Assembly (NCBI GenBank): GCA_036351155.1
Contig: JAZBOO010000021.1
Span: 1-16,001 of the forward strand
Reading direction: 5' to 3'
Length of the DNA: 16,001 bases
Origin: Candidatus Krumholzibacteriia bacterium
GTDB taxonomy: Bacteria > Krumholzibacteriota > Krumholzibacteriia > LZORAL124-64-63
A model generated the notes under the pieces. It was not told the DNA's origin and did no database searches. It saw only the letters and a list, made by a program, of their open reading frames with translations. Positions 817 through 16,001 of this stretch are shown in pieces. Numbering within the stretch: the stretch's first letter is position 1; every line of letters starts with the position of its first letter. Both the position numbers and the translations under genes were made by a program.

Positions 817-854
817 CCACTGCGCGCGAAGTTTTGCGGACTCCAGCGCCGCAA

Positions 855-1041: not shown

Positions 1042-1147
1042 CTTGCCCATGTCAGGGATGTGACCGGTGACTTGGCATGGTGCCAGCTAGTGTTGTTGTC
1101 AAACTGGCTCCACAGCGCCGGAGGCGGAAGCTTTCCTTTTCAACCCC

Positions 1148-1176
1148 TTGACATTATATCCGATTGGGCATAATGT
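1148..1176 (+). promoter_or_regulatory. Sigma70 promoter and operator of the HigBA-like operon
   Basis: TTGACA (1148-1153), 17 nt spacer, TAATGT (1171-1176). Inverted repeat ACATTAT-N12-ATAATGT (1151-1176) spans the promoter. Confidence 0.75.
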
Positions 1177-1182
1177 GACTCC

Positions 1183-1527
1183 GTGAATCCCCACGACAAA
1201 CATGTCGTTTGGCTCGGTGGGGAAATCAAATCTCCCCCCATGAGCAAGGAAGCTCGACTGAAAGCAGGCTTCCTGTTGCGCCAAGTTCAGGGTGGGGAAA
1301 CCCTGGCGATGCCGGATTCAAAACCCATGCCCTCCATTGGCTCACATTGCCACGAATTGAGGGTGCAGGACGGGAGTGAATCGTGGAGGTTCATCTACAG
1401 AATGGACCCCGGAGCCATTATCCTGGTGGATGTGTTCTCCAAAAAGACCCAGAAAACCCCAAAAAGGGTGATCGATACATGCAAGGCCCGGCTGAAGGGG
1501 TTCGATGCTGAGCGAAAGGGTAGATGA
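1183..1527 (+). CDS. Type II toxin, RelE/ParE superfamily, phage Gp49-like (DUF891/HigB-like)
   Basis: KHVVWLGGEIKSPPMSKEARLKAGFLLRQVQ...CHELRVQD...WRFIYR...VDVFSKKTQKTPKRVIDTCKARL; lies directly upstream of an XRE HTH gene. Confidence 0.9.
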   Translation: MNPHDKHVVWLGGEIKSPPMSKEARLKAGFLLRQVQGGETLAMPDSKPMPSIGSHCHELRVQDGSESWRFIYRMDPGAIILVDVFSKKTQKTPKRVIDTCKARLKGFDAERKGR

Positions 1528-1528
1528 A

Positions 1529-1837
1529 ATGGACAGCAAAACCAAAAAGCGCCTTCAGGACAAAGGTTGGGTCTTTGGTGATGCCGCTGACTTTCTTGAA
1601 CTGTCGCCCGAAGAAGCCAGAATCATTGACCTGAAACTCGCTCTTCGGGCCAGTATTCGTGAGGAGAGAACCAAGCAGGGGATGACCCAGGCCGAGCTGG
1701 CCAAAGCCATGGGATCCAGTCAGTCACGAATCGCCCGGATTGAGCGCGGCGACCCGTCCGCCAGTTTGGATTTGCTCCTGAAGGCACTCATGGCCCTGGG
1801 GATGTCCAACAAGCAGATTTCCAAACTCATGGAGTAG
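1529..1837 (+). CDS. XRE-family HTH antitoxin (HigA-like), 102 aa
   Basis: ATG 1529, 1 nt after the toxin stop. HTH_3 motif RTKQGMTQAELAKAMGSSQSRIARIERGDPSASLDLL. Confidence 0.9.
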   Translation: MDSKTKKRLQDKGWVFGDAADFLELSPEEARIIDLKLALRASIREERTKQGMTQAELAKAMGSSQSRIARIERGDPSASLDLLLKALMALGMSNKQISKLME

Positions 1838-1844
1838 ACCCCAT

Positions 1845-2031
1845 CATCGCAGACCTTCTGCTGGCCCGACTCCTCCGCTGACGTCAGCGCAACAAGACAA
1901 CCCGCCGAGATGTGTCCCCCACCCTCGACACCAACCGGATGAAGTAAACCCCCGACCCCATGTCCTGCCCCTGATCATCCCTCCCATCCCAGACAACCTG
2001 GTGCTGGCCGGCACCGAACCAGGCCTCGGCC
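1845..2031. repeat. Direct repeat copy 2 (3' end plus ~39 bp downstream of the beta-helix/FlgD gene)
   Basis: Matches 855-1041 at offset 990. Confidence 0.95.
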
Positions 2032-3323
2032 AGGGATCGGATCTTCAAACCCCGCAAATCATAAACCCCCATGCTCACCTGGCCGGAGTTCACCAGTTCA
2101 AACGAAACCGTGGTCCTGGGATTGAAGGGATTGGGCGCGCAGGACAGGCCCACGCCAAGCGCCAGCGGGGCAGGCTCGACCACTCCGGTCAGACCCCCGC
2201 AATACTCGTACGCCCCACGATCGATGGCCGCGCCGCACCAGCGGGGATGTCCCGCCAGGTCTTCACTGGCCAGCTGAACGGAAAGGGCATGGTCCAGGCC
2301 GCGGTCAATCCCGGGCGAACCGGCGGTGAGCTGGTAGGGAGCTGTTCCCTGCCCCGCCCAGCCCGGATCCTGGTCCACGTTCGTCGCGTTGCCCGCGTAG
2401 CTTTCCAGGTTGTTCCCGAAGTTGTAAAAATCCTTGGTCTCGACCACCTGGGCGCCGGAATAGTGGTTCGTTATGTTGTTCCGGATAATGTTGTTGATCA
2501 GGGGAATCTTGCCGTTGAAGTTCTCGACCGCCCCGCAGACGAAGAAGGCGCTCTCCTCCTCGCACACATTGCCCACGATGGTGTTGTTGATAAGCTTGGG
2601 GTAGCTGTAGACGCTGAACAGGGCGCTGCCGCGCAGGGAAACCACATTGTCCCGGAACAGGTTGCCTGCCAGGACTGGCGACGCCCCGTATCCCACATAA
2701 ACCGCGCCGCCATAGACCGCCCGGTTCCCGCGTAAATCGCAGCTGGCCACCGCCACCTTGTCGACACCCACGAAGGACACGGCCCCACCCGTTTCCGGAC
2801 GCATGGTGCCCCCAGTGGCTCCGGCTCCTCGGTCTTCCCCGGCTCGCGCCACGGCCCCTTCGAAGAGACAATGTTCGAGGCGCGACCAGCCCAGCTGTGC
2901 CGGAATATTGTGGAAATCGACGCCATCCCAGCCCTCGGCTGCGAAACCCGCAGCCGGCCGGAATGCAATGCGCTGTTCAGGCTCCCCCACGGCCCACAAC
3001 CGACCGTTAACCAGAACACGATAAAACCCCGCGAACTCGACAATTGTGCCCGGCGCAATGGTCAAGGTGGCCTCGGCTTCCACCAGCACATCTCCGGTCA
3101 CCCGCACCACATCTGCGGCCCAGGTGGTGGGTTCAGAGATGGCTCCCGCCACGGTGATGTAGGACCCCGACAGCACCGCCCCAGGGTCCGGCGCCACCCC
3201 CTGGCTGGGTGCAGAAGGAGCACTTGCCGGCCCCGTCACGCTCTGGCAGCCATACCCTTCGGCATCGAAGCCCGGTTCCACGCGGAAATCGAGGTTTTCG
3301 GGATCTCGCAGCCTCACTTCCAC
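1884..3323 (-). CDS. Conventional gene call for the C-terminal part: right-handed beta-helix repeats, choice-of-anchor-Q-like motif, FlgD-Ig-type domain
   Basis: GGAVYV/GNRAVY/NNTIVGN repeats; YQLTAGSPGIDRG...DLAGHPR...IDRGAYEY; APNPFNPRTTVSFEL...VYDLRG...VWDGRDDQG...SGVYFIRL. It has no signal peptide of its own. Confidence 0.85.
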   Translation of the reverse strand: MEVRLRDPENLDFRVEPGFDAEGYGCQSVTGPASAPSAPSQGVAPDPGAVLSGSYITVAGAISEPTTWAADVVRVTGDVLVEAEATLTIAPGTIVEFAGFYRVLVNGRLWAVGEPEQRIAFRPAAGFAAEGWDGVDFHNIPAQLGWSRLEHCLFEGAVARAGEDRGAGATGGTMRPETGGAVSFVGVDKVAVASCDLRGNRAVYGGAVYVGYGASPVLAGNLFRDNVVSLRGSALFSVYSYPKLINNTIVGNVCEEESAFFVCGAVENFNGKIPLINNIIRNNITNHYSGAQVVETKDFYNFGNNLESYAGNATNVDQDPGWAGQGTAPYQLTAGSPGIDRGLDHALSVQLASEDLAGHPRWCGAAIDRGAYEYCGGLTGVVEPAPLALGVGLSCAPNPFNPRTTVSFELVNSGQVSMGVYDLRGLKIRSLAEAWFGAGQHQVVWDGRDDQGQDMGSGVYFIRLVSRVGDTSRRVVLLR

Positions 3324-4064
3324 CCCGACGATGTTGTTCCAGGGAGCCGAACCGGCTTCCCGCCATTCCTGGGGAATGACTCAGCCGTATTCTCACAAGA
3401 AGGAATAGTGATGCAGCGGAATGGGGTTCAGATCGGGGTCCCCGTAGTAGGTCCAGTTGTCCCGCACATCGGGCAGACCATAATCACCGGTCTGCACCGA
3501 GGCGGCGATGGCCGTTCCGGTGGGAATCAGATCGCCGGCCACCCCGTTGGTGGGGATGTAGTCGAGGCCCGTGTCCTGCGTGTCGATGATGAGGTTGCGC
3601 TCGACGGTGATCCCTTGCCCCGCACCCTGCAGCCTGACCCCGTAATCGTGGGCTTGATAAAACGTGACAAACTTGACCGACCCGGTGGGGCGAATGCTGA
3701 GCCCTGGATCGTTGTCTCCCCGAAACCGGATATTCCCGTTGATGATGATGCAGTCGGAGATATCCATTCTGTTGTCGCAATAAGACAGGCAGATCTGTTC
3801 GCCCTGCAGGTCGAGCACCGCGCCGTTGCCCACGATGCGTACATCGGCCCCCTCTTCTTCCATGATGAAGCGGTTGGATACCGGGCTGAAGACACGCCCG
3901 ACCAGCAGGCCTCCGGTGTAGGTGACCCCGTTCTCGAGTTCAACATAACGGTCGTAGCCATTGGCTGCGGGGGCGGCCTCGTAGGCTTCCTTGAGGGTGA
4001 TGGCCGGCGACTGCGCCACAAGGAAGGTCATCACAAAAAGCAGGGCGAGATAAACCGAGCGCAA
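1884..4064 (-). CDS. Candidate secreted selenoprotein, 726 aa: signal peptide, beta-helix domain with U-E-Y-G-U (U224, U228), second beta-helix/choice-of-anchor-Q-like domain, FlgD-Ig-type C-terminal domain
   Basis: TTG start at 4064 with GGAG SD. One reading frame to TGA at 1884, interrupted only by TGA at 3393-3395 and 3381-3383. Hairpins lie directly 3' of the UGAs. Confidence 0.7.
3342..3380 (-). promoter_or_regulatory. Putative bacterial SECIS element(s): two adjacent hairpins 3' of the in-frame UGAs
   Basis: mRNA GUCAUUCC-CCA-GGAAUGGC (3380-3362; alternative fold UUCCCCA-GGAA-UGGCGGGAA), then GGG-A-AGCCG-GUU-CGGCU-CCC (3361-3342). Confidence 0.55.
3393..4064 (-). CDS. Conventional gene call for the N-terminal part: secreted beta-helix-like protein ending at the first UGA
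   Basis: Signal peptide MRSVYLALLFVMTFLVAQSPA, followed by beta-helix-like strands (VRIVGNGAVLDL, MDISDCIIINGNI, ITVERNLII). Confidence 0.8.
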   Translation of the reverse strand: MRSVYLALLFVMTFLVAQSPAITLKEAYEAAPAANGYDRYVELENGVTYTGGLLVGRVFSPVSNRFIMEEEGADVRIVGNGAVLDLQGEQICLSYCDNRMDISDCIIINGNIRFRGDNDPGLSIRPTGSVKFVTFYQAHDYGVRLQGAGQGITVERNLIIDTQDTGLDYIPTNGVAGDLIPTGTAIAASVQTGDYGLPDVRDNWTYYGDPDLNPIPLHHYSFL

Positions 4065-4112
4065 GTCATTCTCCAGGGCTGCAGAAGCAAGCTGAACTGT
4101 TGTTCCCACTCA

Positions 4113-4136
4113 ATTATACACGTTCCCCATGAGGAA
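4113..4136 (-). promoter_or_regulatory. -10 box for the beta-helix gene plus an imperfect palindrome in the divergent intergenic region
   Basis: TATAAT on the minus strand (4113-4118) puts the transcription start near 4106, favouring TTG 4064 over ATG 4109. TTCCCCATGAGGAA at 4123-4136. Confidence 0.45.
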
Positions 4137-4220
4137 TTGTAAGTGAAAGAGGGCAACCATTTCCGAGAGTTTTCGTCTGTACAAGCGGTCCCCAACGACC
4201 CCCAACCCCGGAGAGTTACG

Positions 4221-5447
4221 ATGTTCCGCGCGTTAAACCTTCTCGTAGTTCTTCCCTTGCTCATTCTTGGCATTTCCACCCCAGCCCCGGCGGGTGCACC
4301 AAGCATCGCCAGCGGCGCACAGCCCCGCGATGGGATAAAGCACCTCCAGCTGGAAGAGCTGTGGCGTGCGGGCGGCGAGGACGACGAACTGTTCTTCGGC
4401 CTGGTGGCCAAGGTGGCCACCGACCGGGAAGGTCGCGTGTACATACTCGACTCGCAGACCTGCCAAGTTCACATGTACAGCCCGGAGGGCAACTTGATCC
4501 GCACCCTGTTCCGCGAGGGAGAAGGTCCGGGCGAGGTGCGCCAGGCGCGCGACATGTTGATTCGCGGTGACGGCCGCATCGGGGTCATCCAGGAAATTCC
4601 AGGCACCGTGTCCTATGTGTGGCCTGACGGCACGCCGGCCGGACGCGTACAATTGACAGGGCCTGAAGGCGGCGTGGTCAATCTGACCTCTTGCGGAGGT
4701 CGTGATGACATCGTGCTGGTGGCCGGCAACCACAGCCGCGAGGGCCGCGCCCCGGAAATCCGCGAACGCGTCAATTGTCTGGAACGGTACGATGACGAAG
4801 GTCAGCTGATGGCCCGATTCGAGAAGAATGTGGCCGAGTATGATTTTGCCGACTTCCACTTTCGCGAGGACGACCACCTGCCCCCGTTCTGGTTCACCTA
4901 CGATGTGGACCGTCAGGGCAGGATCTACTCCATCAGCAACCATACCGACTACGCGATCAACGTGCACCAGTCGGACGGCCAGCTCCTGCACATCATCACC
5001 CGTGACTACCCTCAGCAGGAGCGGCCCAAGGATGCCGTCCGCCGCCTCGAGCGCATGGTGGAGTCGGCCTTCAACGGCGTGCCTTTTCAGCCCACCATCC
5101 ACATCAACAATACCGAATCGCCGTTCGCCTATTTCCAGCGTGCGCTGCAGGTTCATGAGAACGGAGATCTGTGGGCCTTGACGGCCGTGGGTGCCCGGCC
5201 CGAAGAGCCCGGAGTGATGGCGGTGTTCGATGTGTTCAATCCCGAGGGCCAGTTCATCCATCAGGCCGCCCTGCATGCCGATCATGATGGGCGCGAAGTG
5301 GGGATCTTCCTGGCCGGATCCGACCGCATCCTGGTGGTGCAGGGGTACATGGATTCCCTGGCGGCCCAGTTCGGCAACGGCACAGCAGTGGCGGACGAGG
5401 GTCACGAACCCCAGGTGCCCGAGGTGGTGTGTTACCGGGTGAATTAG
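4221..5447 (+). CDS. Secreted 6-bladed beta-propeller (NHL/TolB-like) protein, 408 aa
   Basis: ATG 4221 with GGAG SD and signal peptide. LEELWRAGGEDDELFFG...VATDREGRVYILDSQ...YSPEGNLIRTLFREGEGPGEV; DVFNPEGQFI near the C-terminus. Confidence 0.85.
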   Translation: MFRALNLLVVLPLLILGISTPAPAGAPSIASGAQPRDGIKHLQLEELWRAGGEDDELFFGLVAKVATDREGRVYILDSQTCQVHMYSPEGNLIRTLFREGEGPGEVRQARDMLIRGDGRIGVIQEIPGTVSYVWPDGTPAGRVQLTGPEGGVVNLTSCGGRDDIVLVAGNHSREGRAPEIRERVNCLERYDDEGQLMARFEKNVAEYDFADFHFREDDHLPPFWFTYDVDRQGRIYSISNHTDYAINVHQSDGQLLHIITRDYPQQERPKDAVRRLERMVESAFNGVPFQPTIHINNTESPFAYFQRALQVHENGDLWALTAVGARPEEPGVMAVFDVFNPEGQFIHQAALHADHDGREVGIFLAGSDRILVVQGYMDSLAAQFGNGTAVADEGHEPQVPEVVCYRVN

Positions 5448-5470
5448 AACAAAATACCATCACCACCGCT

Positions 5471-6028
5471 TCATCGCAGCTCCCGCACCACCGCGCCCTG
5501 GGTCGTGAACGAGATGCCCTGTTGACCAGCGGTGGAGATCATCAAGGCCTCGATGATGGGCCGAGACACCCGCGCTTCCGCCTCCCATTTCACCAGGAAG
5601 TTGGCCCCGGCCCCGCCGGACCGGTCCTTGTCCGGAACCACAAACTGCCGGGTCGACAGCGGCGGCAGAACCACGCTCTCGTCCAGGAACTCCCGGACCA
5701 GCTTTCCCTCGGTGTCGAAGTAGGACACGGCGGAGATCTCGATGCTTTCGCTCAGATCGATGTTGTGGATTCTCAAGGTTGAAGTCAGCAGGTATTCCCT
5801 GTCACCTTTCTGGTGCAAGGCACTGGAGAAAATGGGCACATAGACAAGTTCCCCGGCAATGCTCCTCGGATTGGAAAATGAGGCCAGGGCCTCCCGGTCC
5901 ACGTCGGCGCCCTGCGACATGTTTTTGGATTTCCGATTATCTTCCCTGCCACACCCCGCCAGCACGAGGGCCCCCATGACCAGCAACCCAACGATATAAG
6001 ACCTGCGCACCAATGATTGACTGAGCAT
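5471..6028 (-). CDS. DUF3124-domain lipoprotein
   Basis: AGGAG SD before ATG 6028; lipobox LAGC; VYVPIFS...LTSTLRIHNID...YFDTEGKLV...GGAGANFLVKW...PIIEALMI...GISF. Confidence 0.88.
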   Translation of the reverse strand: MLSQSLVRRSYIVGLLVMGALVLAGCGREDNRKSKNMSQGADVDREALASFSNPRSIAGELVYVPIFSSALHQKGDREYLLTSTLRIHNIDLSESIEISAVSYFDTEGKLVREFLDESVVLPPLSTRQFVVPDKDRSGGAGANFLVKWEAEARVSRPIIEALMISTAGQQGISFTTQGAVVRELR

Positions 6029-6205
6029 ATGATACTCCTGTGCTCTGCTGAATTTGGCCATGGTTTAGTCAAATGGGATTGTATCTCCTGGTGTTTCCTG
6101 GTTCAACTCATTGCTCATATTCCATGGTCGGCTTCGCACCCAGGAAGCAACGGAGTACCCCCATGGCCACGATCCATCTGGCCAACCGGATGCCCGGCCG
6201 GAAGT

Positions 6206-6237
6206 AAAAAGCCGGTCCGGGCCTAACCCGAACCGGC
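6206..6237 (-). terminator. Rho-independent terminator downstream of the MBL gene
   Basis: GCCGGTTCGGG-TTAGG-CCCGGACCGGC followed by TTTTT on the minus strand, 20 nt after the stop at 6258. Confidence 0.8.
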
Positions 6238-6257
6238 CGTACAGCTGGTAGCTTTCT

Positions 6258-7691
6258 CTAGTTCACCGTTTCCTTCGCCTTGATTTGCGCCAGCATTTCG
6301 GCGCCCGTAGGACTCTCCGGGTTCAGCTCCAGAGACTTTTCATACATGGCAATGGCTTCCATGTTATCGCCCATGGCATACAGGGCTTCGCCCAGGCTGT
6401 CGTACACATTCCACGAATCCGGAAACAACTCCACGTTGATGCGGAACATGGTCACTGCCTGTGCCGGCCGATCAGTTTGCAGGAAGTGATAACCATAAGT
6501 GTTGATCTGGGATTCCTGGAAGTAATGGGTCGGTTTGTCGGCCTTGTGCTGGGCCACGATATTCCGGATGGCAGACTCGTCAGCCCCTTCCTCCAGCAGA
6601 GCAAAGAGGGCCGGAGCCGCAGCCTCCTGGCCGGTGACCGCAGCCCACATCTCGGTCATGGTGGTGGTGTTGTTCCCCTGGCTGCAGCCCGGGCTGTCCA
6701 CCAGCTCGGGAAAACGATCAGCCAGGGTGTAGCTGGTGAGATACTCGGCAAGGCTGGCATGGTCCAGGGCGGCCTGGTGGGCGCCTTCCCAAAGGGCCTC
6801 CACGTACTTCACCCGGTTCTCGAAGCCGTCGAAAGTCAATTCGCCATTCCAGTGTCCGGGAATGAGGGTGCGGATTTCGTCTTTCCGCGCCAGCAGGGTG
6901 TTCCAGTTCTTGAGCAGCAGGGGAAAGTCGTGCTGGACCCCGGGCCGGGCGATGAACGAGGCCAAACAGCCGGGCGTGTCGGTGAGCCAGACATCGGCCA
7001 TGGTATCCCCCGTCATGAGCAACCCGTGTTCAGGTACCAGAATGGCGATGTCGCTGTCCGAGTGCATCCCGCCGATGTAATACATCTCGAATGTGGTGTC
7101 CCCCATTTTCAGGACCTTGCGATCCTTGAAGGTCTGGGTCGGGACCACGAGGGGATTGTTGGCCTGGGCTGCTTCCAGTACCATGCGGTTGAGGGTCAGG
7201 TTTTCCTCGAGCGCGGCCCGTTGTGGCGCGTCGGCAGCCATGGCCGCCAGCTCAGATTCCTGTTCTGCCACCCGGGTGGTCAGCCAGTCCACCATGCGCT
7301 GCAGTTGCTCCGGATCGCGATTCATGCCTGCGGCCACCAGTTCGTGGCCCACGATGGTGCAGTCCTTGTAGACGGCATTGCCGCCGGTATGGTCCTCGTG
7401 CTGGTGGGTGTTGATGAGCACCTTGAAGTCGTCGCGGCCCAGCTCCCGCGCAATGACCTTGCGCAGTTCAGCATCGACCTTGGGGTTGCCGGTGGTGTCG
7501 ATGATCACCAGCCCGTCCGACGTGGGAAAGGCCATGACGGCTGTGGAGGAAACGTGGTCCCCGATCCAGACGCGGATGGCACCCGAATCGTACTTGTGAA
7601 CGTGAAGGGGAAGGCCCGCCACCATTTCGGCGGAGGCACTCGCGGCGGCCAGAATCAGACACAGGGCAAGCAGGGCAGCGGCTCTGGACAT
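6258..7691 (-). CDS. Secreted metallo-beta-lactamase-fold hydrolase with C-terminal TPR repeats
   Basis: Signal peptide; IIDT, THQHEDHTGGN (HxHxDH), GMHSDSD, TGD and PGH metal-ligand motifs; TPR INTYGYHFL...WNVYDSLGEALY...YEKSLELNPES. Confidence 0.9.
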   Translation of the reverse strand: MSRAAALLALCLILAAASASAEMVAGLPLHVHKYDSGAIRVWIGDHVSSTAVMAFPTSDGLVIIDTTGNPKVDAELRKVIARELGRDDFKVLINTHQHEDHTGGNAVYKDCTIVGHELVAAGMNRDPEQLQRMVDWLTTRVAEQESELAAMAADAPQRAALEENLTLNRMVLEAAQANNPLVVPTQTFKDRKVLKMGDTTFEMYYIGGMHSDSDIAILVPEHGLLMTGDTMADVWLTDTPGCLASFIARPGVQHDFPLLLKNWNTLLARKDEIRTLIPGHWNGELTFDGFENRVKYVEALWEGAHQAALDHASLAEYLTSYTLADRFPELVDSPGCSQGNNTTTMTEMWAAVTGQEAAAPALFALLEEGADESAIRNIVAQHKADKPTHYFQESQINTYGYHFLQTDRPAQAVTMFRINVELFPDSWNVYDSLGEALYAMGDNMEAIAMYEKSLELNPESPTGAEMLAQIKAKETVN

Positions 7692-7852
7692 GGCATCGAC
7701 TCCTCACTGAGTGGGGAAATCATCAAGTCCGGTGGCCGGGGCACCTCGGGACTGACGGGAACAGGAATTGTTCCAGTGGGAGTATACGGGCTATTGATAT
7801 TTGTGTTTCAAAACAAATGATGCGAGCCATCCTGGAGTAGCTGATGAAGAAC

Positions 7853-9265
7853 TCACCGCACCAGCATCAACTTCTGACTGGCCACCCCGGCGGTCGATTC
7901 AAGACGCAGCAGGTAGGTCCCCGACGGCCCATGGCGGCCATCATTCCCGGTCCCGTCCCAGACCAAGGTCCGGGCACCCGATGGGCTCCACCCCTCCTCC
8001 AGGGTGCGCACCAGACGGCCTGAAAGGTCGTACACGGCCAGCGTGATCCCACCTGGGGCCTCGAGTTCAAAGCTGATGGTGGTCCGGGGGTTGAACGGAT
8101 TCGGTGAAGCCGGATGGAGCGCGATCATGCTCCGGTTAAGGTCCGGCACCGCGGACAGATCCTCCCGCTGCTGCACGACCTGCAACACCAGGAACTCGGC
8201 CGGCAACAGGGGCGCCCATCCCACCTGCATGATGGTGCGTCCCTCGGCGATGTCCAGCTCGGTCATGGTCGAGAAGTCACAGCGGGCGAAGTAGGCGTCG
8301 CTGCCCGTGGTGCCCTGGAACCAGCCCGACAGGAAAAGGGACTGCAGGAATACCTCAAGCTCGCTCTCGATCGCGAACCAGGTGAGCGGTTCGTTGGGTT
8401 CGGTCAAGCACCAGGCCGTCCCCTCGACAATGGACTCTTCGATGCACAGCCCCATGCGCCGCACGGCCACGTATTTCCACTCGGGATCGGTGGCCAGGGT
8501 CCGGGAGCCCCAGATGCGGATGCCCGACAGGTTGCGGATGGCGTTGACACCCAGGGGGTTCAGCTGATCCTGCTCCGGGGTGGTCACCGGGTAGGTCACC
8601 CCCGTGGCGGTGGCGATCACCCCGATGGGGGAATCGTTGGCCTCGGTGGCGCTGAAGGCCCCGGCCACGAATCCGCTGGGCGGCAGGGTCAGGGTGGTGC
8701 CCGTGGGAGAGGCCTCGATCCAGGGAAAATACAGAGCGGCAAACCCCTGGTCAGATCCCAGCAGGGCGCGCTGGGCCAAAATGTCGTTGATGGTGTCGGT
8801 GGGCGCAGCAGGGTCCAGGATCGCGATCCGGTCACCCGCGCTCTCGCAGTGGGCAATCATCGCCGCCTGGACCGCGGGGCTCGCGGCCCCCGGAATCGCC
8901 ACGATGGCAACCTCGTCCACATCCAGCAGCGCCTGCAACCCTGTCCGGGAACCGGGGCCGCCGTCGAACCCGATGAGGGTGGGGTCATCGGCGGCGCTCA
9001 CCCGCACCACCGCACACCGCACGCCGCCGTTGGCAAAAAACCCGGCCACCGAGGGGGCCAGATAGGGGTTGGTCAGCCCGGCGGTCGAGGCCCCGAACAC
9101 CGCCACGAACTCGGCGTAGCTGTCCAGCAGGACCGCCTCGTCCAGGGGGCCTTGTTCGGCCATCCCCACGAATCCCGCCTGCTCGGTGGGCACGCGGGAA
9201 ATGGGGACAGCAAGGGCGGGATACGCCGACACGAGCAGCAGAAGCAACAGGGCGAAGGATTTCAT
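7853..9265 (-). CDS. Phage tail-sheath-family domain fused to an N-terminal signal peptide and a C-terminal FlgD-Ig-type domain, 470 aa
   Basis: Signal MKSFALLLLLLVSAYPALA. Sheath motifs AGFVGMAEQGP, YLAPSVAGFFANGG, HCE...DRIAILD, AALYFPWI, PPSGFVAG, EQDQLNPLGVNAIR, IWGSRTL, WKYVAVRR, EPN, PAEFL (8168-9208). C-terminal domain SPNPFNP...VWDG...SGTYLLRL (7853-8167). Confidence 0.9.
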   Translation of the reverse strand: MKSFALLLLLLVSAYPALAVPISRVPTEQAGFVGMAEQGPLDEAVLLDSYAEFVAVFGASTAGLTNPYLAPSVAGFFANGGVRCAVVRVSAADDPTLIGFDGGPGSRTGLQALLDVDEVAIVAIPGAASPAVQAAMIAHCESAGDRIAILDPAAPTDTINDILAQRALLGSDQGFAALYFPWIEASPTGTTLTLPPSGFVAGAFSATEANDSPIGVIATATGVTYPVTTPEQDQLNPLGVNAIRNLSGIRIWGSRTLATDPEWKYVAVRRMGLCIEESIVEGTAWCLTEPNEPLTWFAIESELEVFLQSLFLSGWFQGTTGSDAYFARCDFSTMTELDIAEGRTIMQVGWAPLLPAEFLVLQVVQQREDLSAVPDLNRSMIALHPASPNPFNPRTTISFELEAPGGITLAVYDLSGRLVRTLEEGWSPSGARTLVWDGTGNDGRHGPSGTYLLRLESTAGVASQKLMLVR

Positions 9266-9339
9266 GATTCTTCCGATTCCGGGGTGATGGCCAAGGTCGA
9301 TGAACCCTGATGATACCACAACCGGAGAATTTTGGTCGG

Positions 9340-10494
9340 CTATTTCAGATCAAAGCCGGCAGCCAGGAGCTGCTCCTGGATCGCTTTGACCACCGCATCG
9401 CCCAGGGTCGCCTCGCCGGTCTCCTCCGCCTTCTTCAGCCGTTCCGCCTCCAGAAATTTTTCTCGCGCGACGGAAAGCTCGCCGATCTTCTTTCTCAGCT
9501 CCGCCCTCTGGGCGGCCACTTCCTGCAGGTGGATCTTGCGCTCCTCGGCAGTCATTTCCTGCATCTCATCGGGCAGCTCCTGGTCGGAAACCTTGGCCAG
9601 GATATCCGCATCACTTTCCAGGGCATCCACCAGGTCGCGGCTGCGGTTGTCGTACATCTTGCTGGATTTGGTGACCGACCGACTGACCGCCACCGAAGAA
9701 GACAGCTTGCCGGCATTGGCGTCCTGAGCCGCCTGGTTGCTCAAGTAATACTCCCGCTTTTCACGCGAGCCATACCAGAGGTAAGTGGCGTTCAGGTCCT
9801 CGTTCAGCCGCATGATGTCCTGGTCCTGGGGACAGGGAATGGGGGCCACCACCCGGTCCTGATCGATGTTAAAGTACTTCCCATGACCCAGCATGGCACC
9901 GTGCTGCCATTTCCCTTTGATGCCCTCCTGGTTCGGACCGCAGTGGATGGTGTTGACGACAACCCCCTGCCCCACCGCCCGCTCGCAGGAATTCTTGTAA
10001 TACACTCCGCCCTGGGTGAAGGGCTCATTCCCGGCAATGAATATGGCCCGGTAGGCGCCCGACCTTTCGGACCAGTCCAGTCGGGTGATCGCCTCGTCGA
10101 TGACCTGCCCGCAATACTCGTCGCCGCCTTGAGTGGTCAGGGAAAACAGGGCCTCCGAGAGGGCGTCCAGATCGTCGGTCAGCGGAACCACCTGGCGCAG
10201 GTAACCTTCATTCACCGGCAGATTGGTGTTGCCGTACTCGAACAGAGCCACCCTCAGGAACGGAGCCTGGTGGTACTTCCGCGCACGGGCAAACTGCTGC
10301 ACGATGGTCCAGAGCTGGCTCTTGGCCTGGCTGATGAGGCCGTCCATGGAGTTGGAGGTGTCCAGGAGAAGGGCCACGTCCACCATCGCATGGTCCCGGG
10401 GAGCCGAACGCGCTGTCGAGGTGGAGGGAAGAGTCGTGATCGCCATCGCCATCGTCAGGATGATGGCCGGGTAGAATGCTTTAGAAATTTGCAA
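9340..10494 (-). CDS. Secreted von Willebrand factor A (vWA) domain protein
   Basis: TTG start with GGGGAGG SD; signal peptide; MIDAS motif VDVALLLDTSNSMDGLI; GGDEYCG; IFIAGNE. Confidence 0.9.
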   Translation of the reverse strand: MQISKAFYPAIILTMAMAITTLPSTSTARSAPRDHAMVDVALLLDTSNSMDGLISQAKSQLWTIVQQFARARKYHQAPFLRVALFEYGNTNLPVNEGYLRQVVPLTDDLDALSEALFSLTTQGGDEYCGQVIDEAITRLDWSERSGAYRAIFIAGNEPFTQGGVYYKNSCERAVGQGVVVNTIHCGPNQEGIKGKWQHGAMLGHGKYFNIDQDRVVAPIPCPQDQDIMRLNEDLNATYLWYGSREKREYYLSNQAAQDANAGKLSSSVAVSRSVTKSSKMYDNRSRDLVDALESDADILAKVSDQELPDEMQEMTAEERKIHLQEVAAQRAELRKKIGELSVAREKFLEAERLKKAEETGEATLGDAVVKAIQEQLLAAGFDLK

Positions 10495-10626
10495 TGTGGG
10501 ACCTCCCCCAATGAGAACGGATGTGAGGGAGGTGGTTACCCCGCGGTGGCGTATCGGGTTCCCGTTTTAGGATTGGGGTTTCAATTGAGGGAGTCAAGGA
10601 CACCTGGTTTTCGGGGACCAGTCCTG

Positions 10627-10661
10627 AAAACAAAAACGACCTGCATTGCTGCAAGTCGTTT
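10627..10661 (-). terminator. Rho-independent terminator after tRNA-Lys 3' fragment (copy 1)
   Basis: Minus strand AAACGACTTGCA-GCAA-TGCAGGTCGTTT, then TTGTTTT. Confidence 0.75.
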
Positions 10662-10727
10662 CTGCTCTTAAATTTATTTGGTACGCCGCCAGGGAATCGA
10701 ACCCCGAATCTATCGACTTAGGGGCAC
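10627..10727 (-). repeat. Older att site: tRNA-Lys 3' fragment (10679-10708 intact) plus downstream flank; direct repeat of 13626-13726
   Basis: 78/82 identity for 10627-10708 vs 13626-13707, then 12/19 over the decayed anticodon-arm part. Offset 2999. Confidence 0.9.
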
Positions 10728-13439
10728 GCCGGCACTACATTGTGCTACCGCTACCTGCCACAACCACCGAATTACGGGCACCCGCAGGGCAAAAGCTCTA
10801 TTTTCGCGACTTGGCTGAGCCAACACATCCTCTAGTCCCTGAAGGCGACCAAGGTCATCTGAACCGCCATGCATGGCCAGCACCTGCAGCGCCCAAAACA
10901 GCCGTATCGTATCGGTTTCATATCTCCCCACAAGCCTCCCCTTCTCCACGATGCCATCAACGGCCCGGCGACAATAGTCCAATACCCCATTCTGGTTTCC
11001 GTGGCGAGATAGTTCCCTGGCCACGAAGCGCAATAGGTCTGGATGGATGTCCTCACGGACAGCCAATTCAATCAGCATAGCAACGTCAGAACCATTGACC
11101 CGAATCCCCACCCAAGGCAAAATGGGATGACTTCCAGGAATCCGCGTAGCCCAAGGAGGCCCAGTTAGACCTGCAGGGCGTCCGGGGGGAGTCCCAACAA
11201 TTGATTCCAACTCCTCAGGCGAAGGACGGGGCTGATAGTAGAGTGGCGAAGATCCTTCCAGCCATGGCCCTCGGCCGAAGACAACTGTACCCGAGGAAAC
11301 ACCCGCCCACACGGAATCATCAAGTCGGTTCGGAAGTGGTAGTAAAAACTCGTAGTATCCATAAACACTTCCCCGACAAACGACCGTTTCACCTCCGTGG
11401 TTAACGGCTACAAAAACTGCGTGTGCCTTGCCAGCCCCCACTTCGAGTACTTGCCCGGATTGGTACTCTGTAGCAACGTCAATAATTCTCGACATTGGCT
11501 CTTCCGAATTGTTCATACTGGAGTGATTGAAGCAGAGATTGCGCAGTCTGGTTCCGAGACGCTTCAAAAACTTGGCATCGGCATCAGTTTGAGGGTCACC
11601 ACGCAGTTCGCTCTCGGAGATCAGAGCCAACCGGTCCAGTATCTCCATGAATTCCGGGAACCGTCCGTCATCCAATCGGTGTGTTTCTGGGTCAGCCTGG
11701 ATCTGATCCGCAGCCATTTTGTACACACCGATTTCGCGACAAAGGTTGTCCCAGCGATGAGCCTCTTCTTTCAAGCGGCGGTAAAAAAGGGGGAATGGTT
11801 CGACATAGCCCTGGAATTGCGGTTCGGCCATGGAGATGCCCAAATATACGTGGGCACTCTTAAGATATGGCGCAGCAGCATGGCGAGATTCTGCCCAGGC
11901 TCCCAGAGCAGCATTCACCTGCTTGTCTCGCCATATGGGGGACCGGAAAAGGCTGGGAATACCCGCGGGCATATGAAAAAGAGCTTCGTGGCAGTTCCTA
12001 AATCCGCTCATCAGGCCAATTGAGTCTGTGGCTACAGTGGAGGCAGATTGTGGGAGTTTCAATCCCGCGCGCTTCAACAGGCCGGCTTCGTCTGGGATAT
12101 CGAACAGGCCCGCCATGACCTGAAGGCCCGAAATCGGCCAAGTTGAATGTTCGGCGATTTCCTGCAACAACACCCCATCCGCTGATCGACGCTGCGCGAG
12201 GATTCGTAAGCCGAGCACTTCTTTCCGCCCCCTGGCAGGGCTATCATCGATCAACGGAACTTCCCAGGTACCAGACTGGTTGAGGAATTGGTCGAAGTCC
12301 TTGTCGCCCTCCAAAACTGCCCGAATGGCAGCTGAACCGGGCTTCGCCGTCACTTCTTCGGCTAGATCCAGGTACATCCGGACATCTGGATCGTCTCGCG
12401 GACCCGCAATCTGAGAGGTCGTTCCATCAAGGAGTTCCCACCGCTCCCAGCTGCTTCGATGCCTTATTAGCGCTTCGACAAGTAACAAGGCTCGCCTCGT
12501 CGCCAGGGGGTCATCGACAGGGAAAACCGCTCGCGAGAGCCAGTGCCTTGCTCGGAAATAGCCTATCCCAAGCTCTCCCGAAGCCCTCCCCCGCGCACGA
12601 TACTCCGAATAATCTTCATTTTCCCCCAACAGGGGGCTAGACCCGAAATAGCTAGCCTCCCGAACCCTGGCGACCTCGGACTCCACGAGCGATCGTCGAA
12701 CAGCATCAAGACCTAAACTGTCAACGAACTTGGTATCGCCGTCAGAAGCGAGAATCACGGCGACAGATAGGAGAGCTGCATTGTCTTTCGACAGCTCGGC
12801 ATCATGCGGGGCAAGGCTCATCGCAAGGTCAAGACAGGAGTTTGACCAATCCCTCGCCAGGGCGATCAGTTCCTCATTGAACGATAGGTTTTCCAGTTCA
12901 TCGATGGCCGCTCGAACCAGGATCATGAATGTGTGATAGACTAAATCGGTCGTGACGAATGGATAGTTCTCGTCGTACCACTCGTACATTTCATTCTTGG
13001 TCCAAGGCATGACGACTGCACCCTGGCCGGCCAGCATCGCAAGTGCACTGTCAGGCAGGTCGAAGGCACAGTGAATGTTTTCATCCCGCATGAACGCTAA
13101 TCGCCGCGCCACTCCCTGGGCTGAATCAAGTACCTTTGCAACCTCTTCCAAAGCCATCCGATGATCACGATCGAAATTTTCTTCACGTCCAGCGGCCTGC
13201 CGTTGGTCGGCAAAATGTCCCTGAACCCGCTCCACGAGGGTGGTGTCTGCCAACAGAGCTCGCAGGGCTTCCACAGCGTCTAACTGTTCCTGACGATTCA
13301 ACTCTTTGATCGCATCATGCAAATCACGGGGGTCCGATGCATCAAGGCCATACAGTTCGAGATCAGATGGTAATTGAGCTACCGAAGTGCCAGGGAAGAC
13401 AACAACCAAAAGGATTAAGAAGCTGAGTCTACAGATCAT
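10710..13439 (-). CDS. DUF3160-domain secreted protein, 909 aa (island cargo)
   Basis: GGGAGG SD; signal peptide; PFVTTDLVYHTF, EDYSEY, YFRARHWL, AALGAWAESRH, GYVEPFPLFY, IIDVAT, VLEVGAG, GSVYGYYEF, RLDDSVW. Visibly more A/T-ending codons than neighbouring genes. Confidence 0.88.
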   Translation of the reverse strand: MICRLSFLILLVVVFPGTSVAQLPSDLELYGLDASDPRDLHDAIKELNRQEQLDAVEALRALLADTTLVERVQGHFADQRQAAGREENFDRDHRMALEEVAKVLDSAQGVARRLAFMRDENIHCAFDLPDSALAMLAGQGAVVMPWTKNEMYEWYDENYPFVTTDLVYHTFMILVRAAIDELENLSFNEELIALARDWSNSCLDLAMSLAPHDAELSKDNAALLSVAVILASDGDTKFVDSLGLDAVRRSLVESEVARVREASYFGSSPLLGENEDYSEYRARGRASGELGIGYFRARHWLSRAVFPVDDPLATRRALLLVEALIRHRSSWERWELLDGTTSQIAGPRDDPDVRMYLDLAEEVTAKPGSAAIRAVLEGDKDFDQFLNQSGTWEVPLIDDSPARGRKEVLGLRILAQRRSADGVLLQEIAEHSTWPISGLQVMAGLFDIPDEAGLLKRAGLKLPQSASTVATDSIGLMSGFRNCHEALFHMPAGIPSLFRSPIWRDKQVNAALGAWAESRHAAAPYLKSAHVYLGISMAEPQFQGYVEPFPLFYRRLKEEAHRWDNLCREIGVYKMAADQIQADPETHRLDDGRFPEFMEILDRLALISESELRGDPQTDADAKFLKRLGTRLRNLCFNHSSMNNSEEPMSRIIDVATEYQSGQVLEVGAGKAHAVFVAVNHGGETVVCRGSVYGYYEFLLPLPNRLDDSVWAGVSSGTVVFGRGPWLEGSSPLYYQPRPSPEELESIVGTPPGRPAGLTGPPWATRIPGSHPILPWVGIRVNGSDVAMLIELAVREDIHPDLLRFVARELSRHGNQNGVLDYCRRAVDGIVEKGRLVGRYETDTIRLFWALQVLAMHGGSDDLGRLQGLEDVLAQPSRENRAFALRVPVIRWLWQVAVAQCSAGVPLSR

Positions 13440-13624
13440 GTCCCGCCTCCCAAAATGTATGTGTGGGAAGAATTAAGAATTGAAAAAGACATCAAACTTT
13501 GCGTGTAACTCAAACTACGAAGGCTGAAAACCCTGAGTCAAGTATCTCGGAGATCAGGTTTCAAACCCAATGAAAAAGATAGGGAATTTTTTTACTTTAT
13601 TTTTTACTTCTTCTAGCTTCACCC

Positions 13625-13660
13625 AAAAACAAAAACGACCTGCATTACTGCAAGTCGTTT
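13625..13660 (-). terminator. Rho-independent terminator after tRNA-Lys 3' fragment (copy 2)
   Basis: Minus strand AAACGACTTGCA-GTAA-TGCAGGTCGTTT, then TTGTTTTT. Confidence 0.75.
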
Positions 13661-13677
13661 CTGATCTTGTATTTATT

Positions 13678-13722
13678 TGGTACGCCGCCAGGGAATCGAA
13701 CCCCGAACCTACTGATTAAGAG
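13678..13722 (-). tRNA. 3' half of tRNA-Lys(CTT) only: an att-site duplicate, not a functional tRNA
   Basis: CTCTTAA anticodon loop, TCAGT, AGGTT, CGGGG-TTCGATT-CCCTG T-arm, GCGGCGT-A-CCA. The upstream sequence cannot form the 5' anticodon stem, D arm or acceptor strand. Confidence 0.9.
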
Positions 13723-13744
13723 ACACCCTGAGCGCCATATTTCT

Positions 13745-13774
13745 ACGTTCAGCAATGTCCAACCATGTCCAACA
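13745..13774. repeat. Three tandem 10-bp repeats, putative integrase arm-type binding sites
   Basis: ACGTTCAGCA / ATGTCCAACC / ATGTCCAACA, starting 22 bp from the att core. Confidence 0.6.
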
Positions 13775-13916
13775 ACTACAATTCAACTTGCAGTGCATGA
13801 ATAACATACGCTATTTCAGGTTAACCTTGTTGTCGCTGCCGGTTTTACGATATGCCTGACACTGGAAGGAAGCTGGCAAGGTAGCTACCGGACCTGCTTA
13901 GCCCACGGAGATCACC

Positions 13917-15155
13917 ATGGCACGCCTTACTAATCGCCTCCACGACAAGACCGTCAAGACCGCGAAGCCGAAGGACAAGAAGTACGAACTGCGCGACGGC
14001 AACGGCCTGGTCCTGCGCATCTACCCGAACGGCGAGAAGCGCTGGTACTACAACTACGACTTCCAGGGACGGCGTCGGAATATGATGCTGGGAGCGTATC
14101 CAGGCGTGACGCTGGCTGACGCCCGCCAGTTGCGCGACGACGCCCGCGGGCTCGTCAGTCAGAAGATCGACCCGCTGACGGCCAGGCAGGAGGCCGAGCG
14201 GGCTGCGAGGCTCAACCCGACTCTCCAGGAACTCGCAGCGCAGTACATGGCCTCAGCCGCCTTCAGGGGACTCTCGCAACGCTCCCAGGCCGACTACAGG
14301 CGCACATACGTGACCTACACCCCAGATCGGATCGCCCGGTTGAAGGTCAACGAGTTGGAGCCCTTCCACATCAAGGCGATCACGACCCCGATCCGTAAGC
14401 GCGGCGCGATGGTTGCGGCACAGCGCGCCCTGGCCCACCTGAAGAGCCTGTTCTCCTGGGCCAACGATGAGGCCGACATCGCGGTCAACCCGTGTGTGAC
14501 GCTTAAGATCAAGGTCACCCAGGTCTTCGACCAACGCGTCCTGGCTCCCGCGGAGATCCACACCTTCTGGCACACGCTCGACGGGTTCGAGACCCACCAC
14601 AGCATCAAGAACGCGCTCCGGCTGCAGCTCCTTACACTCACCCGCCGCGCCGAAGTTTGCATGGCTGAATGGAGTCACGTGGACTGGACCGAGCGAATCT
14701 GGACCGTCCCCAGCGCGAATGCCAAGAACAGCCGGGAGCACCGGCTCTACCTGACCGACACTGCCATCGCGGTCCTCAAAGCTCAGAAGAGCATCGCGGG
14801 CCGAAGCAAGTGGGTCTTTCCCAGCGTGCAGGATCCCCGAAAGCACCTTCCAGCCGACAGCGTCACCCAGGCCGTCATCAACAACCGGGGACTGTGCGCC
14901 TTCGAAAAGCCCTTCAACACGCACGATCTTCGACGGACTGCCGCGACCGAAGCCACCGGCAGCGGAGCACCCCGAGACCACGTCAAGCGCACCCTGAACC
15001 ACTCGCGGGCCGGGGATGTGACCGACCGGTACGACCGGTACAGCTACGACCGCGAGAAACAGGAGGTACTGAAGATCTGGGAGCGGCGGCTACTCGAGAT
15101 CGTTGCTTCGAATGACGAGAAGGGCGAAACGTCATGCAACACTATGGTCGTTTGA
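13917..15155 (+). CDS. P4-like tyrosine integrase with N-terminal arm-DNA-binding (DUF4102-type) domain
   Basis: YELRDGNGLVLRIYPNGEKRW...LGAYPGVTLADAR; catalytic residues in TLTRRAE (R), AKN (K), HDLRRT (H, R), LNH (H) and YDRYSY (Y). Confidence 0.95.
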   Translation: MARLTNRLHDKTVKTAKPKDKKYELRDGNGLVLRIYPNGEKRWYYNYDFQGRRRNMMLGAYPGVTLADARQLRDDARGLVSQKIDPLTARQEAERAARLNPTLQELAAQYMASAAFRGLSQRSQADYRRTYVTYTPDRIARLKVNELEPFHIKAITTPIRKRGAMVAAQRALAHLKSLFSWANDEADIAVNPCVTLKIKVTQVFDQRVLAPAEIHTFWHTLDGFETHHSIKNALRLQLLTLTRRAEVCMAEWSHVDWTERIWTVPSANAKNSREHRLYLTDTAIAVLKAQKSIAGRSKWVFPSVQDPRKHLPADSVTQAVINNRGLCAFEKPFNTHDLRRTAATEATGSGAPRDHVKRTLNHSRAGDVTDRYDRYSYDREKQEVLKIWERRLLEIVASNDEKGETSCNTMVV

Positions 15156-15519
15156 CTAGCACTCACACTTGCCATATTTCCGTAGTTTGTTTAATACCAG
15201 CCTGTTAACTCCTTACACCGGACAACCAGCCAGGCCCGGAATTCCTCCCGGAGGGTTGGCAATGAACATTCGTAAAGAAATCTCCAAAAAAATCCAGGAA
15301 GATTGGCGAAGCAACGCCAATTCGAGGCCAGTATAACTCCTTTGTTTTCAGGACCCGACCTTCGGAATCTATACAAAAAGATGTTGACTAACAACGACTT
15401 AGGGCATTTTGCAATCCCCCACCCACTTGCACAGCTAGACTCACCGCGTCATCATGATGCCCATGGAGAGCACTTCACCGCCACGGAACACCGGGGCGTA
15501 GCATTCAGGAGAAGGATCT

Positions 15520-15750
15520 ATGGATAGCGACATCAGGATGATGAACGTCAAAGAGGTCATGGACCTCACCGGACTGAGCCGCACAACGCTCTGGCGGCGC
15601 GTCCGCCGGGGTGATTTCCCCACTCCCCGCCAGTTGGGGCCTCGCCGCTTCGCCTGGCTCAACACTGACATCACCGAGTTCATGCTCAACCTGCCGCCGG
15701 TTCCGTATGCCAAGGTCGAGTGGATGAACGGGGAGGTGAGGCCCTCCTAA
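15520..15750 (+). CDS. alpA: AlpA-family regulator / recombination directionality factor
   Basis: AGGAG SD; MMNVKEVMDLTGLSRTTLWRRVRRGDFPTPRQLGPRRFAWLNTDITEF. Confidence 0.92.
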   Translation: MDSDIRMMNVKEVMDLTGLSRTTLWRRVRRGDFPTPRQLGPRRFAWLNTDITEFMLNLPPVPYAKVEWMNGEVRPS

Positions 15751-16001
15751 TCTGACCGAACCTGAAGCGGGCCAGGTTAAGATCCGCGTTCTGCACAATC
15801 GTCGTAGCCGACTACAGGATTGCCACTTAGAGGATCCCACGACGGCGCAACAAAGCGGCGGGGCAGTCGAAAAAGAGAAGAAGGAGATGTTCATTTTGAA
15901 TGTAACCCCTTCACTTCAACTACGAAAAAGATCGCAATAGAGAGTGTTAGTAATTAGTTGCTGGACACTCGTCGGCGAGGGCCGGCTCGGCCGGCCCCGC
16001 C

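Follow-up and report, generated by a model that had tools for sequence, protein, structure and literature searches.

This study concerns a single gene in a 16,001-nucleotide stretch of DNA from a Candidatus Krumholzibacteriia bacterium (assembly GCA_036351155.1, contig JAZBOO010000021.1, positions 1 to 16,001 of the forward strand), hereafter called the window. At 7853..9265, on the minus strand, lies a gene for a 470-amino-acid (aa) protein in which the core of a contractile tail sheath is preceded by a predicted signal peptide and followed by a domain of the kind that sorts cargo of the type IX secretion system (T9SS). The window further carries a CopG-like gene, a Gp49/HigB-like gene paired with a helix-turn-helix (HTH) gene, a choice-of-anchor-Q gene with a sorting domain, and genes for a beta-propeller, a DUF3124 and a metallo-beta-lactamase-fold plus TPR protein on one side of the sheath gene, and for VWA, DUF3160 and integrase proteins on the other. 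A preliminary description of this DNA had read the gene as an exported and repurposed phage tail sheath ending in a FlgD-type domain; the sheath core between an export and a sorting signal has stood, and is found family-wide, while the FlgD-type reading of the tail has not. We propose that the protein is probably a T9SS cargo, with a sheath subunit domesticated from an extracellular contractile injection system (eCIS) as its passenger.

Gene and protein architecture

The longest open reading frame (ORF) at this position begins at a GTG codon (7853..9319, minus strand, 488 aa). We chose instead the ATG at 9265, which yields 470 aa and the N-terminus MKSFALLLL, because the closest relatives are also 470 aa long with the same Met-Lys (P0001, at 93% identity, begins MKFFALP). 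The GTG start adds only 18 unrelated residues, and no upstream frame encodes a PGVY strand. The gene and its parts, all on the minus strand, are as follows.

7853..9265, minus strand: gene for the putatively exported sheath-derived protein, 470 aa, stop codon at 7853-7855 (ORF list and homologues)
9270..9274, minus strand: motif GGAAG resembling a ribosome-binding site, just 5' of the ATG at 9265 (read from the sequence)
9209..9265, minus strand: predicted signal peptide, residues 1-19, MKSFALLLLLLVSAYPALA, with a predicted signal peptidase I (SPase I) cut after ALA (inspection and hydrophobicity rule)
8168..9208, minus strand: sheath core of contractile injection system (CIS)/phage tail type, domains 1 and 2, residues 20-366, 36.5 kDa, isoelectric point (pI) 4.06
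8618..8647, minus strand: residues 207-216 (TEANDSPIGV), decayed remnant of the motif D..RGVHKAPAN (joint alignment)
8330..8389, minus strand: charge-inverted helix, residues 293-312 (net charge comparison)
8168..8203, minus strand: retained C-terminal strand (C-arm), residues 355-366, PAEFLVLQVVQ (conservation and structure alignment)
8126..8167, minus strand: linker, residues 367-380, with a mean predicted local distance difference test (pLDDT) score of 54 for the block against more than 90 on either side
7856..8125, minus strand: T9SS type A C-terminal sorting domain, an Ig-like beta-sandwich, residues 381-470 (TIGR04183 and FlgD_ig)

The putative signal peptide has the make-up of the Sec/SPase I type, with MK, a 13-residue Leu-rich hydrophobic core and ALA ahead of the cleavage point. 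The anatomy given in the preliminary description, a signal peptide of 19 aa, a sheath of about 347 aa and 104 aa of linker and domain, agrees with this map down to the residue counts. Its statement that the codon style matches that of the host holds only roughly: the G+C content at third codon positions (GC3) is 0.851, compared with 0.735 +/- 0.09 in 918 ORFs of at least 600 aa, which places the gene at the 93rd percentile.

Pfam Phage_sheath_1 (PF04984) matches the window protein at 46.2 bits, above its gathering cut-off of 31.4, and Phage_sheath_1C (PF17482) at 19.4 bits, below its cut-off of 26.9; the latter cut-off is exceeded by many members of the family described below, among them L022, L024, L012 and P0115. 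A profile built from 99 family members finds as its best match the sheath of the Streptomyces coelicolor CIS (E 5.5e-105), followed in order by Haloferax-type, Anabaena, Algoriphagus, PVC, Afp, pyocin and T4 sheaths. The two-domain sheath fold is present in the predicted model, as structure alignment confirms; the ESM Atlas gave no usable match for the protein. As judged by profile and predicted fold, membership of the tail-sheath superfamily is clear, also for the region where the PF17482 score falls below the cut-off.

The C-terminal domain and type IX secretion

The NCBIfam model of the T9SS type A sorting domain, TIGR04183, matches the C-terminal domain at 32 bits against a cut-off of 23, over profile positions 2-70 of 72, and the match ends 3 residues before the stop. 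FlgD_ig (PF13860) scores 40.2 bits on the same domain and Por_Secre_tail (PF18962) remains below its cut-off (17.9 vs 27), while the FlgD equivalog models all fall far short of theirs, the best reaching 30.9 bits against 230 and covering the Ig-like part only. A profile search of all six-frame ORFs found the same sorting domain on 126 ORFs of the window genome, in 118 of them at the C-terminal extremity; the neighbouring gene at 1884-3323 is one of the 126. Furthermore, the genome encodes PorU (499 bits, cut-off 420), an adjoining PorV (62.4 bits, cut-off 27) and SprA (483 bits summed, cut-off 200). GldM was not found in the genome, but the control for the GldM model also gave nothing; GldK-like matches in the genome were all below cut-off.

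In Bacteroidota, type A domains route Sec-exported proteins through the T9SS, after which PorU cuts the domain off and the protein is attached to a surface glycolipid or released. Given the TIGR04183 match, the 126 ORFs and the presence of PorU, PorV and SprA, the FlgD_ig tail is best seen as a secretion and anchoring signal, expected to be removed, rather than as a FlgD-like appendage. What had been called a FlgD-type tail is instead a T9SS type A sorting domain, a standard tag in this genome, and the window protein, to the extent that its sequence can tell, qualifies as a T9SS type A cargo.

Relatives of the window protein

A homologue search returned 768 proteins at E <=1e-3 among 7999 scored candidates, and the best 120 were examined. 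PF13860 lies on 106 of the 120 matches listed, most of which measure 460-490 aa, and the database labels of the members include Krumholzibacteriia, Eisenbacteria, "T9SS type A sorting domain-containing protein" and "phage tail sheath protein FI". A signal-peptide-like N-terminus, defined as an N-terminal 10-residue window with a Kyte-Doolittle mean of at least 1.9, is found in 94 of 99 aligned relatives and a PNPF-type start of the sorting domain in 88 of 99; PGVY occurs in none of them (0/99). In a set of contigs representing one genome per species, the same architecture is seen in Krumholzibacteria, in Eisenbacteria and in a bin labelled Fibrobacteraceae (loci L001-L015 and L021).

The C-terminal end of the protein varies between lineages. 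Two Planctomycetota genes, L022 (7896-9341) and L024 (7857-9326), combine a signal peptide and sheath core with dockerin-type repeats and a Cys-rich end, Dockerin_1 scoring 26.7 bits in L022 (cut-off 22.9) and like repeats being visible by eye in L024; both keep a GVWR(S/A)P(A/T)G motif. The C-termini of L012 and P0115 consist of a hydrophobic segment followed by basic residues, for which a PEP-CTERM identity was considered and dropped, no NCBIfam model matching them. P0118-P0120 have a signal peptide and no recognisable anchor.

A maximum-likelihood tree of 86 sheath cores places all 29 signal-peptide forms on one side of a branch with 100/100 support, which recurs in 100% of 200 bootstrap trees; as the tree is midpoint-rooted, these forms make up one clade only with a root among the canonical sheaths. 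First to branch among them are the Planctomycetota proteins of L022 and L024. The dN/dS ratio is 0.22 for the sheath core against a 75%-identical orthologue and 0.25 for the whole gene against the orthologue in L001, and independent contigs from other public runs bridge both domain junctions. The family-wide architecture, the bridging contigs and the dN/dS of 0.22 exclude that the gene is a chimera, a one-off or a pseudogene. The preliminary description had left room for a one-off fusion or an assembly chimera and had proposed to look for the same architecture in other genomes; PF13860 in 106 of 120 listed homologues and the bridged junctions rule out the former, and the latter turned up in the 99 aligned relatives.

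Within the phylum, the gene occurs in 15 of 201 genomes searched, and searches of other genomes of the same genus did not find it (0/6 by protein search, 0/7 by DNA search). It is an accessory gene.

Two other kinds of sheath were seen alongside this family. At L031, L036, L037 and L041 (Acidimicrobiia and other Actinomycetota), sheaths seem to start with MATSTAGFVG, near position 8001, with neither PGVY nor a signal peptide; they form their own 100/100 branch and would represent a second, independent arm-less lineage, presumably cytoplasmic. At L017 (7950-9209, Syntrophobacterales), a canonical-looking sheath has a PGIYVEE strand and a 40-residue C-terminal extension; the following 1.5 kb of contig contain no tube gene, and the neighbouring genes code for an FHA-domain and a PBP/Secretin_N protein.

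Lost and retained assembly features

The nearest relatives without a signal peptide share 41-47% identity with the window protein over residues 19-365 and have the N-terminus MPEYLSPGVYVEEIEIGAKPIEGVSTSTVGF. Canonical relatives at L019 and L025 sit in eCIS-type loci, with gp19-type tube genes after the sheath in both and Pvc16_N ahead of it in L019. Since the nearest canonical relatives lie in such loci, the exported family appears to derive from short eCIS sheaths of the Afp2/Pvc2 kind.

The passages of PMC12546770 on which we draw state that sheath assembly needs the intercalation of N- and C-terminal strands between subunits and a charged, tube-contacting "attachment helix". We compared these features by aligning 99 exported sheaths jointly with 22 canonical ones. 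The N-terminal handshake strand PGVY[VI]EE, which the canonical relatives have, is absent from the window protein and from 99/99 family members. As had been claimed, the signal peptide stands in its stead: it occupies the exact place of the donor strand PGVYVEE, replaces all of the canonical N-terminus up to "AK", and of the linker that follows only "PI" stays conserved.

The motif D..RGVHKAPAN is 86-100% conserved in the 22 canonical sheaths (D, K and A 100%, V 95%, G and A 91%). In the T9SS subclade, to which the window protein belongs, this segment is four residues shorter and rewritten (T-E-A-N-D-S-P-I-G), the canonical positions being deleted or replaced, and the shortening of an RGVWKAPAN-type segment to EANDSPIG noted earlier is confirmed by the alignment with canonical sheaths. 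P0115, L012, L022 and L024 still contain the motif. In addition, the canonical GALMG has become GWFQG in the exported family, with W in 98% of members; in the window protein, W315 and F316 are among the altered residues.

A charge inversion affects one helix. Residues 293-312 have a net charge of -1.55 +/- 1.3 in the exported sheaths (n=99) against +2.77 +/- 1.2 in the canonical ones (n=22), and five other helices display no such difference. The helix is a candidate for the attachment helix that contacts the tube, for which the passages of PMC12546770 give no residue numbers. The pI of the sheath core likewise differs, with a median of 4.41 in exported and 5.75 in canonical sheaths and 4.06 in the window protein. 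The PF04984/PF17482 bit scores drop stepwise, from 83-89/65-73 in canonical sheaths to 75-81/38-51 in the exported Planctomycetota forms, 36-43/33-36 in those with hydrophobic tails and 46/19 in the window protein.

The C-terminal strand is retained. PAEF is conserved at 70-90% in the exported family, while the strand residues after it are conserved at 0.3-0.6, as compared with 0.7-0.9 in canonical sheaths. Altogether 56 alignment columns are at least 85% conserved and identical in exported and canonical sheaths, including PPSG, WGARTL, VRR, EPN and PAEF. The extra domain reported to follow the C-terminal strand does so, in the order PAEF strand, linker and sorting domain. Chains taken from assembled sheaths cease to align to the predicted model after residue 354, while the alignment of monomeric or pre-assembly crystals (6gkw, 3lml and 3hxl) goes on through 365-367, which suggests that the model resembles a pre-assembly monomer with its C-arm folded back. 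Of the five features tested as marks of a working contractile sheath, the window protein lacks four (N-arm, conserved motif, partner genes and, by its predicted signal peptide, cytoplasmic location) and has one, the C-terminal strand.

Search for tail partners

The window genome comprises 4.19 Mb in 405 contigs and is 97.6% complete; according to a local profile search, the window gene is its sole sheath-like ORF. None of the 18 window ORFs scanned is a tail gene, in agreement with what had been said of the window. Against the whole genome, three eCIS tube proteins gave a best E of 0.041, and family searches gave E 0.38 for gp19 (PF06841), 0.5 for gp25 (PF04965) and 0.32 for Phage_GPD (PF05954), and nothing for Baseplate_J (PF04865), Hcp (PF05638) and Phage_tube (PF04985). 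No tail partner was identified when 644 plus-strand ORFs from 20 canonical CIS loci were compared with the genome by blastp. Among the 303 ORFs that lie downstream of the sheath in these loci, 11 match the genome; 7 of these are second sheaths that match the window gene, and the remaining 4 match other, unannotated ORFs.

As a positive control, PF06841 was searched in 14 genomes of the phylum, and 7 of them gave tube matches that exceed its cut-off. Among 11 relatives whose sheath is of the exported type, 7 show no tube, and four of those seven genomes are at least 93% complete; in the remaining 4 relatives, a tube lies beside a second, canonical-like sheath match (G086, G097 and G185) or on a different contig from the exported gene (G070). 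No gene besides the sheath is common to more than 3 of the 17 loci formed by the window and 16 related loci. With a single sheath gene and no tube, Hcp, gp25, Baseplate_J, Phage_GPD or VgrG detected in the genome, the protein is not a normal subunit of a CIS encoded elsewhere in it, a case that the preliminary description had named as refuting its reading.

At L010 (5623-7806), L013 (7074-8945), L014 (7727-10039) and L022 (5376-6920), a gene for a hybrid sensor histidine kinase is adjacent or close to that of the exported sheath. The family is very common, and its occurrence at four loci is probably a coincidence; we do not read it as a partner.

Genomic neighbourhood

In the same-genus genome G055 (C5:298852-301885, locus L101), the beta-propeller and VWA genes lie about 1.15 kb apart, with one unrelated ORF of 200 aa between them. 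The window has the DUF3124, metallo-beta-lactamase-TPR and sheath genes at this place, which marks 5471-9265 as a variable spot.

Direct copies of a repeat are found at 10615-10720 and 13614-13719, 92% identical over 106 columns, each consisting of a hairpin and a tRNA 3' end in reverse complement; G055 has a tRNA-Lys(CTT) gene whose 3' end is overlapped by the core of the repeat. Between the two copies lies the DUF3160 gene, with a GC3 of 0.553 (genome mean 0.735), and the integrase gene (13917-15155) follows just beyond. Such paired tRNA-end repeats suggest att-type scars of integrated elements; the window has no intact tRNA, and the sheath gene lies outside the repeat-bounded segment.

At the other end of the window, a CopG-like ORF (227-550, minus strand) scores below cut-off, and a Gp49/HigB-like toxin ORF (1183-1527, plus strand) overlaps an HTH_3 (Xre-type) ORF (1505-1837, plus strand) in what looks like a toxin-antitoxin pair. 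The choice-of-anchor-Q/sorting-domain protein at 1884-3323 (minus strand) has no signal peptide; upstream of it and in frame is an ORF that does have one (3393-4109). The stretch 1884-4109 is split by two TGA codons in this frame, at a distance of 12 bases (3393-3395 and 3381-3383), which could be a broken gene, a sequencing error or a case of read-through. PADLOC has no family for the sheath protein or six neighbours, and only weak matches for the integrase, Gp49-like and HTH ORFs; Rfam has no family in the window.

Discussion

Our analysis suggests that the gene encodes a T9SS cargo with a domesticated eCIS sheath subunit as its passenger, an explanation that we hold to be probable and whose export route follows from conserved signals and from the machinery encoded in the genome. 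It is supported by the architecture, homology and fold of the protein, by family-wide conservation, by the absence of CIS partners and by the outer-membrane parts of the T9SS. From these we infer, rather than observe, actual secretion, removal of the sorting domain, surface attachment, the oligomeric state and the function. The protein would be exported by Sec and cut by signal peptidase after Ala19, and its two-domain sheath core would then fold in the periplasm. The T9SS, with SprA as translocon and PorV as shuttle, would recognise the C-terminal type A sorting domain, which the PorU sortase would remove, and the protein would then be released or covalently attached to the surface of the cell. 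Once outside, the very acidic 36.5-kDa sheath core would act without tube, baseplate or contraction. Since three features that serve assembly in canonical sheaths (N-terminal donor strand, D..RGVHKAPAN motif, basic helix) are lost or changed, it would most likely be displayed as a monomer or small oligomer, with a structural or binding role at the surface rather than a contractile one; this is the weakest part of the proposal.

Several observations weigh against this explanation or parts of it. The signal-peptide call comes from the eye and a simple hydrophobicity rule. Only the outer-membrane half of the T9SS is shown in the genome, motor and ring being not confirmed, and a full-text search of open-access and bioRxiv papers for Krumholzibacteria together with T9SS found no report of such secretion in this phylum. 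Since they lack an anchor, P0118-P0120 may act in the periplasm or be released. None of the 15 listed runs (10 studies) that contain the sequence is RNA. The whole-genome PF04984 search missed the window's own gene, which scores 46 bits in hmmscan, and the negatives of the whole-genome family search are therefore weaker than they look, although local phmmer, blastp and the positive control back them. Finally, since the PAEF C-arm and 56 common conserved columns are kept, the core may still be able to self-assemble.

This last point leads to an alternative that we regard as unlikely: the C-terminal strand that is kept could let exported cores self-assemble on the cell surface, as a filament, ring or lattice that has no tube. 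Loss of the N-arm and the presence of the sorting domain would keep the subunits monomeric in the periplasm, and the cut by PorU would free the strand outside. The conserved PAEF strand, the 56 columns conserved in common with canonical sheaths and the flexible linker between strand and sorting domain all agree with such a scheme, as does the alignment of this strand in cis with monomeric and pre-assembly crystals but not with assembled sheaths; strand intercalation is, according to the passages cited above, established for sheath assembly (PMC12546770). The N-terminal donor strand is, however, absent in 99/99 members, the most conserved canonical motif is deleted in the window subclade, and conservation beyond PAEF is lower than canonical sheaths show (0.3-0.6 vs 0.7-0.9). 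Moreover, a patchy occurrence, in 15 of 201 genomes and in no other same-genus genome searched, is unlike that of a core envelope structure.

Patchiness is in line with a role in defence, in which the displayed core acts as a surface decoy that binds and blocks incoming phage-tail or foreign CIS parts such as tube, baseplate or fibres. The gene is accessory and lies in a region that varies with respect to G055, where the stretch from beta-propeller to VWA differs, and the window also contains toxin-antitoxin-like genes and an integrase. This support is circumstantial only, and neither a PADLOC family for the protein or its neighbours nor a conserved partner gene accompanies it; the features by which a sheath binds other tail parts, the arms and the basic helix, are those that were lost. 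We consider a decoy improbable.

A slim chance at best remains for a periplasmic protein with a real signal peptide and a C-terminal Ig-like domain that is merely a structural or binding module. Such a protein would be in line with P0118-P0120, which have a signal peptide and no anchor, with the Por_Secre_tail score (17.9 vs 27) and with the unconfirmed T9SS motor, but TIGR04183 scores above its cut-off, the domain lies at the very end of the protein, as it does in 118 of the 126 carrier ORFs of the genome, and PorU, PorV and SprA are present; the dockerin and hydrophobic-tail variants also point to an extracellular or surface location. That the gene is what decay has left of a prophage tail or CIS locus, or codes for a normal cytoplasmic sheath whose start was miscalled, we deem very remote, for despite the integrase and two att-like tRNA-Lys 3' fragments 1.4-4.7 kb away and a Phage_sheath_1C score below cut-off, the frame is intact, dN/dS is 0.22, 99 aligned relatives share the architecture, the longest ORF adds 18 unrelated residues with no upstream PGVY, and the gene lies outside the repeat-bounded segment.

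To our knowledge, every described sheath, be it of myophages, tailocins, eCIS, type VI secretion systems (T6SS) or thylakoid and cytoplasmic CIS, is both produced in the cytoplasm and assembled there on a tube. Within open-access and bioRxiv papers, we found no full-text report of a tail sheath combined with a signal peptide and T9SS and no paper on PF04984 together with PF13860, and the best-listed of these papers contained neither "tail sheath" with "C-terminal sorting domain" or "type IX secretion" nor "secreted sheath"; the preliminary description likewise knew of no such system. A sheath subunit as T9SS cargo would thus unite a known fold with a known secretion tag in a combination and at a location not described before.

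If the gene indeed encodes such a cargo, a whole clade of sheaths has been moved across the membrane, at least in Krumholzibacteriota, Eisenbacteria, a bin labelled Fibrobacteraceae and Planctomycetota. With lineage-specific surface anchors, purifying selection and no tail partner, this clade would be a clear case of a phage structural fold reused by the cell, and would add a new type of passenger to the cargo of the T9SS. A naturally "arm-less" sheath core lets structural biologists ask what the fold does beyond contraction. Annotation pipelines, as well as programs that detect CIS or prophages by counting matches to "phage tail sheath protein FI", will miscall exported sheaths as tail remnants. 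Should the cores after all form a polymer, it would be a new T9SS-dependent surface structure built from the contractile-sheath fold.

Comparison with known systems

The closest counterparts of the window protein are the short sheaths of eCIS (Afp2/Pvc2 type; S. coelicolor CIS sheath, PDB 8bky, 9gts and 9gtp), with which it shares a homologous two-domain core and, in the case of archaeal and bacterial eCIS sheaths that precede gp19-type tube genes, 41-45% identity. Where these sheaths have a PGVYVEE strand, D..RGVHKAPAN, GALMG and a basic helix, the window protein has a predicted signal peptide, a deleted motif, GWFQG and an acidic helix. Unlike them, it has an added sorting domain, and no tube, baseplate, spike or cap gene was found beside it or elsewhere in the genome. 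Pre-assembly monomeric sheaths (CD1363 of Clostridioides difficile, 6gkw; Lin1278, 3lml; DSY3957, 3hxl) hold their C-terminal strand in cis, as in our model; these are cytoplasmic precursors that assemble around a tube, whereas for the window protein no tube was found and the N-terminal arm is missing.

The T9SS type A cargo of Bacteroidota and related phyla, which includes gingipains, SprB and secreted glycoside hydrolases, resembles the window protein in its order of Sec signal, passenger and C-terminal beta-sandwich of ~80-90 aa (TIGR04183). The window protein differs from such cargo in that its passenger has a phage-tail sheath fold and that its host phylum is without T9SS studies in the literature searched. 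With the FlgD hook cap it shares only the Ig-like beta-sandwich (PDB FlgD chains, E 3.8e-9 over ~70 residues); the other parts of FlgD are unmatched, and the domain ends 118 unrelated ORFs of the genome. If exported sheath cores do form a polymer, a phage-tail protein would have given rise to a counterpart of donor-strand-exchange pili.

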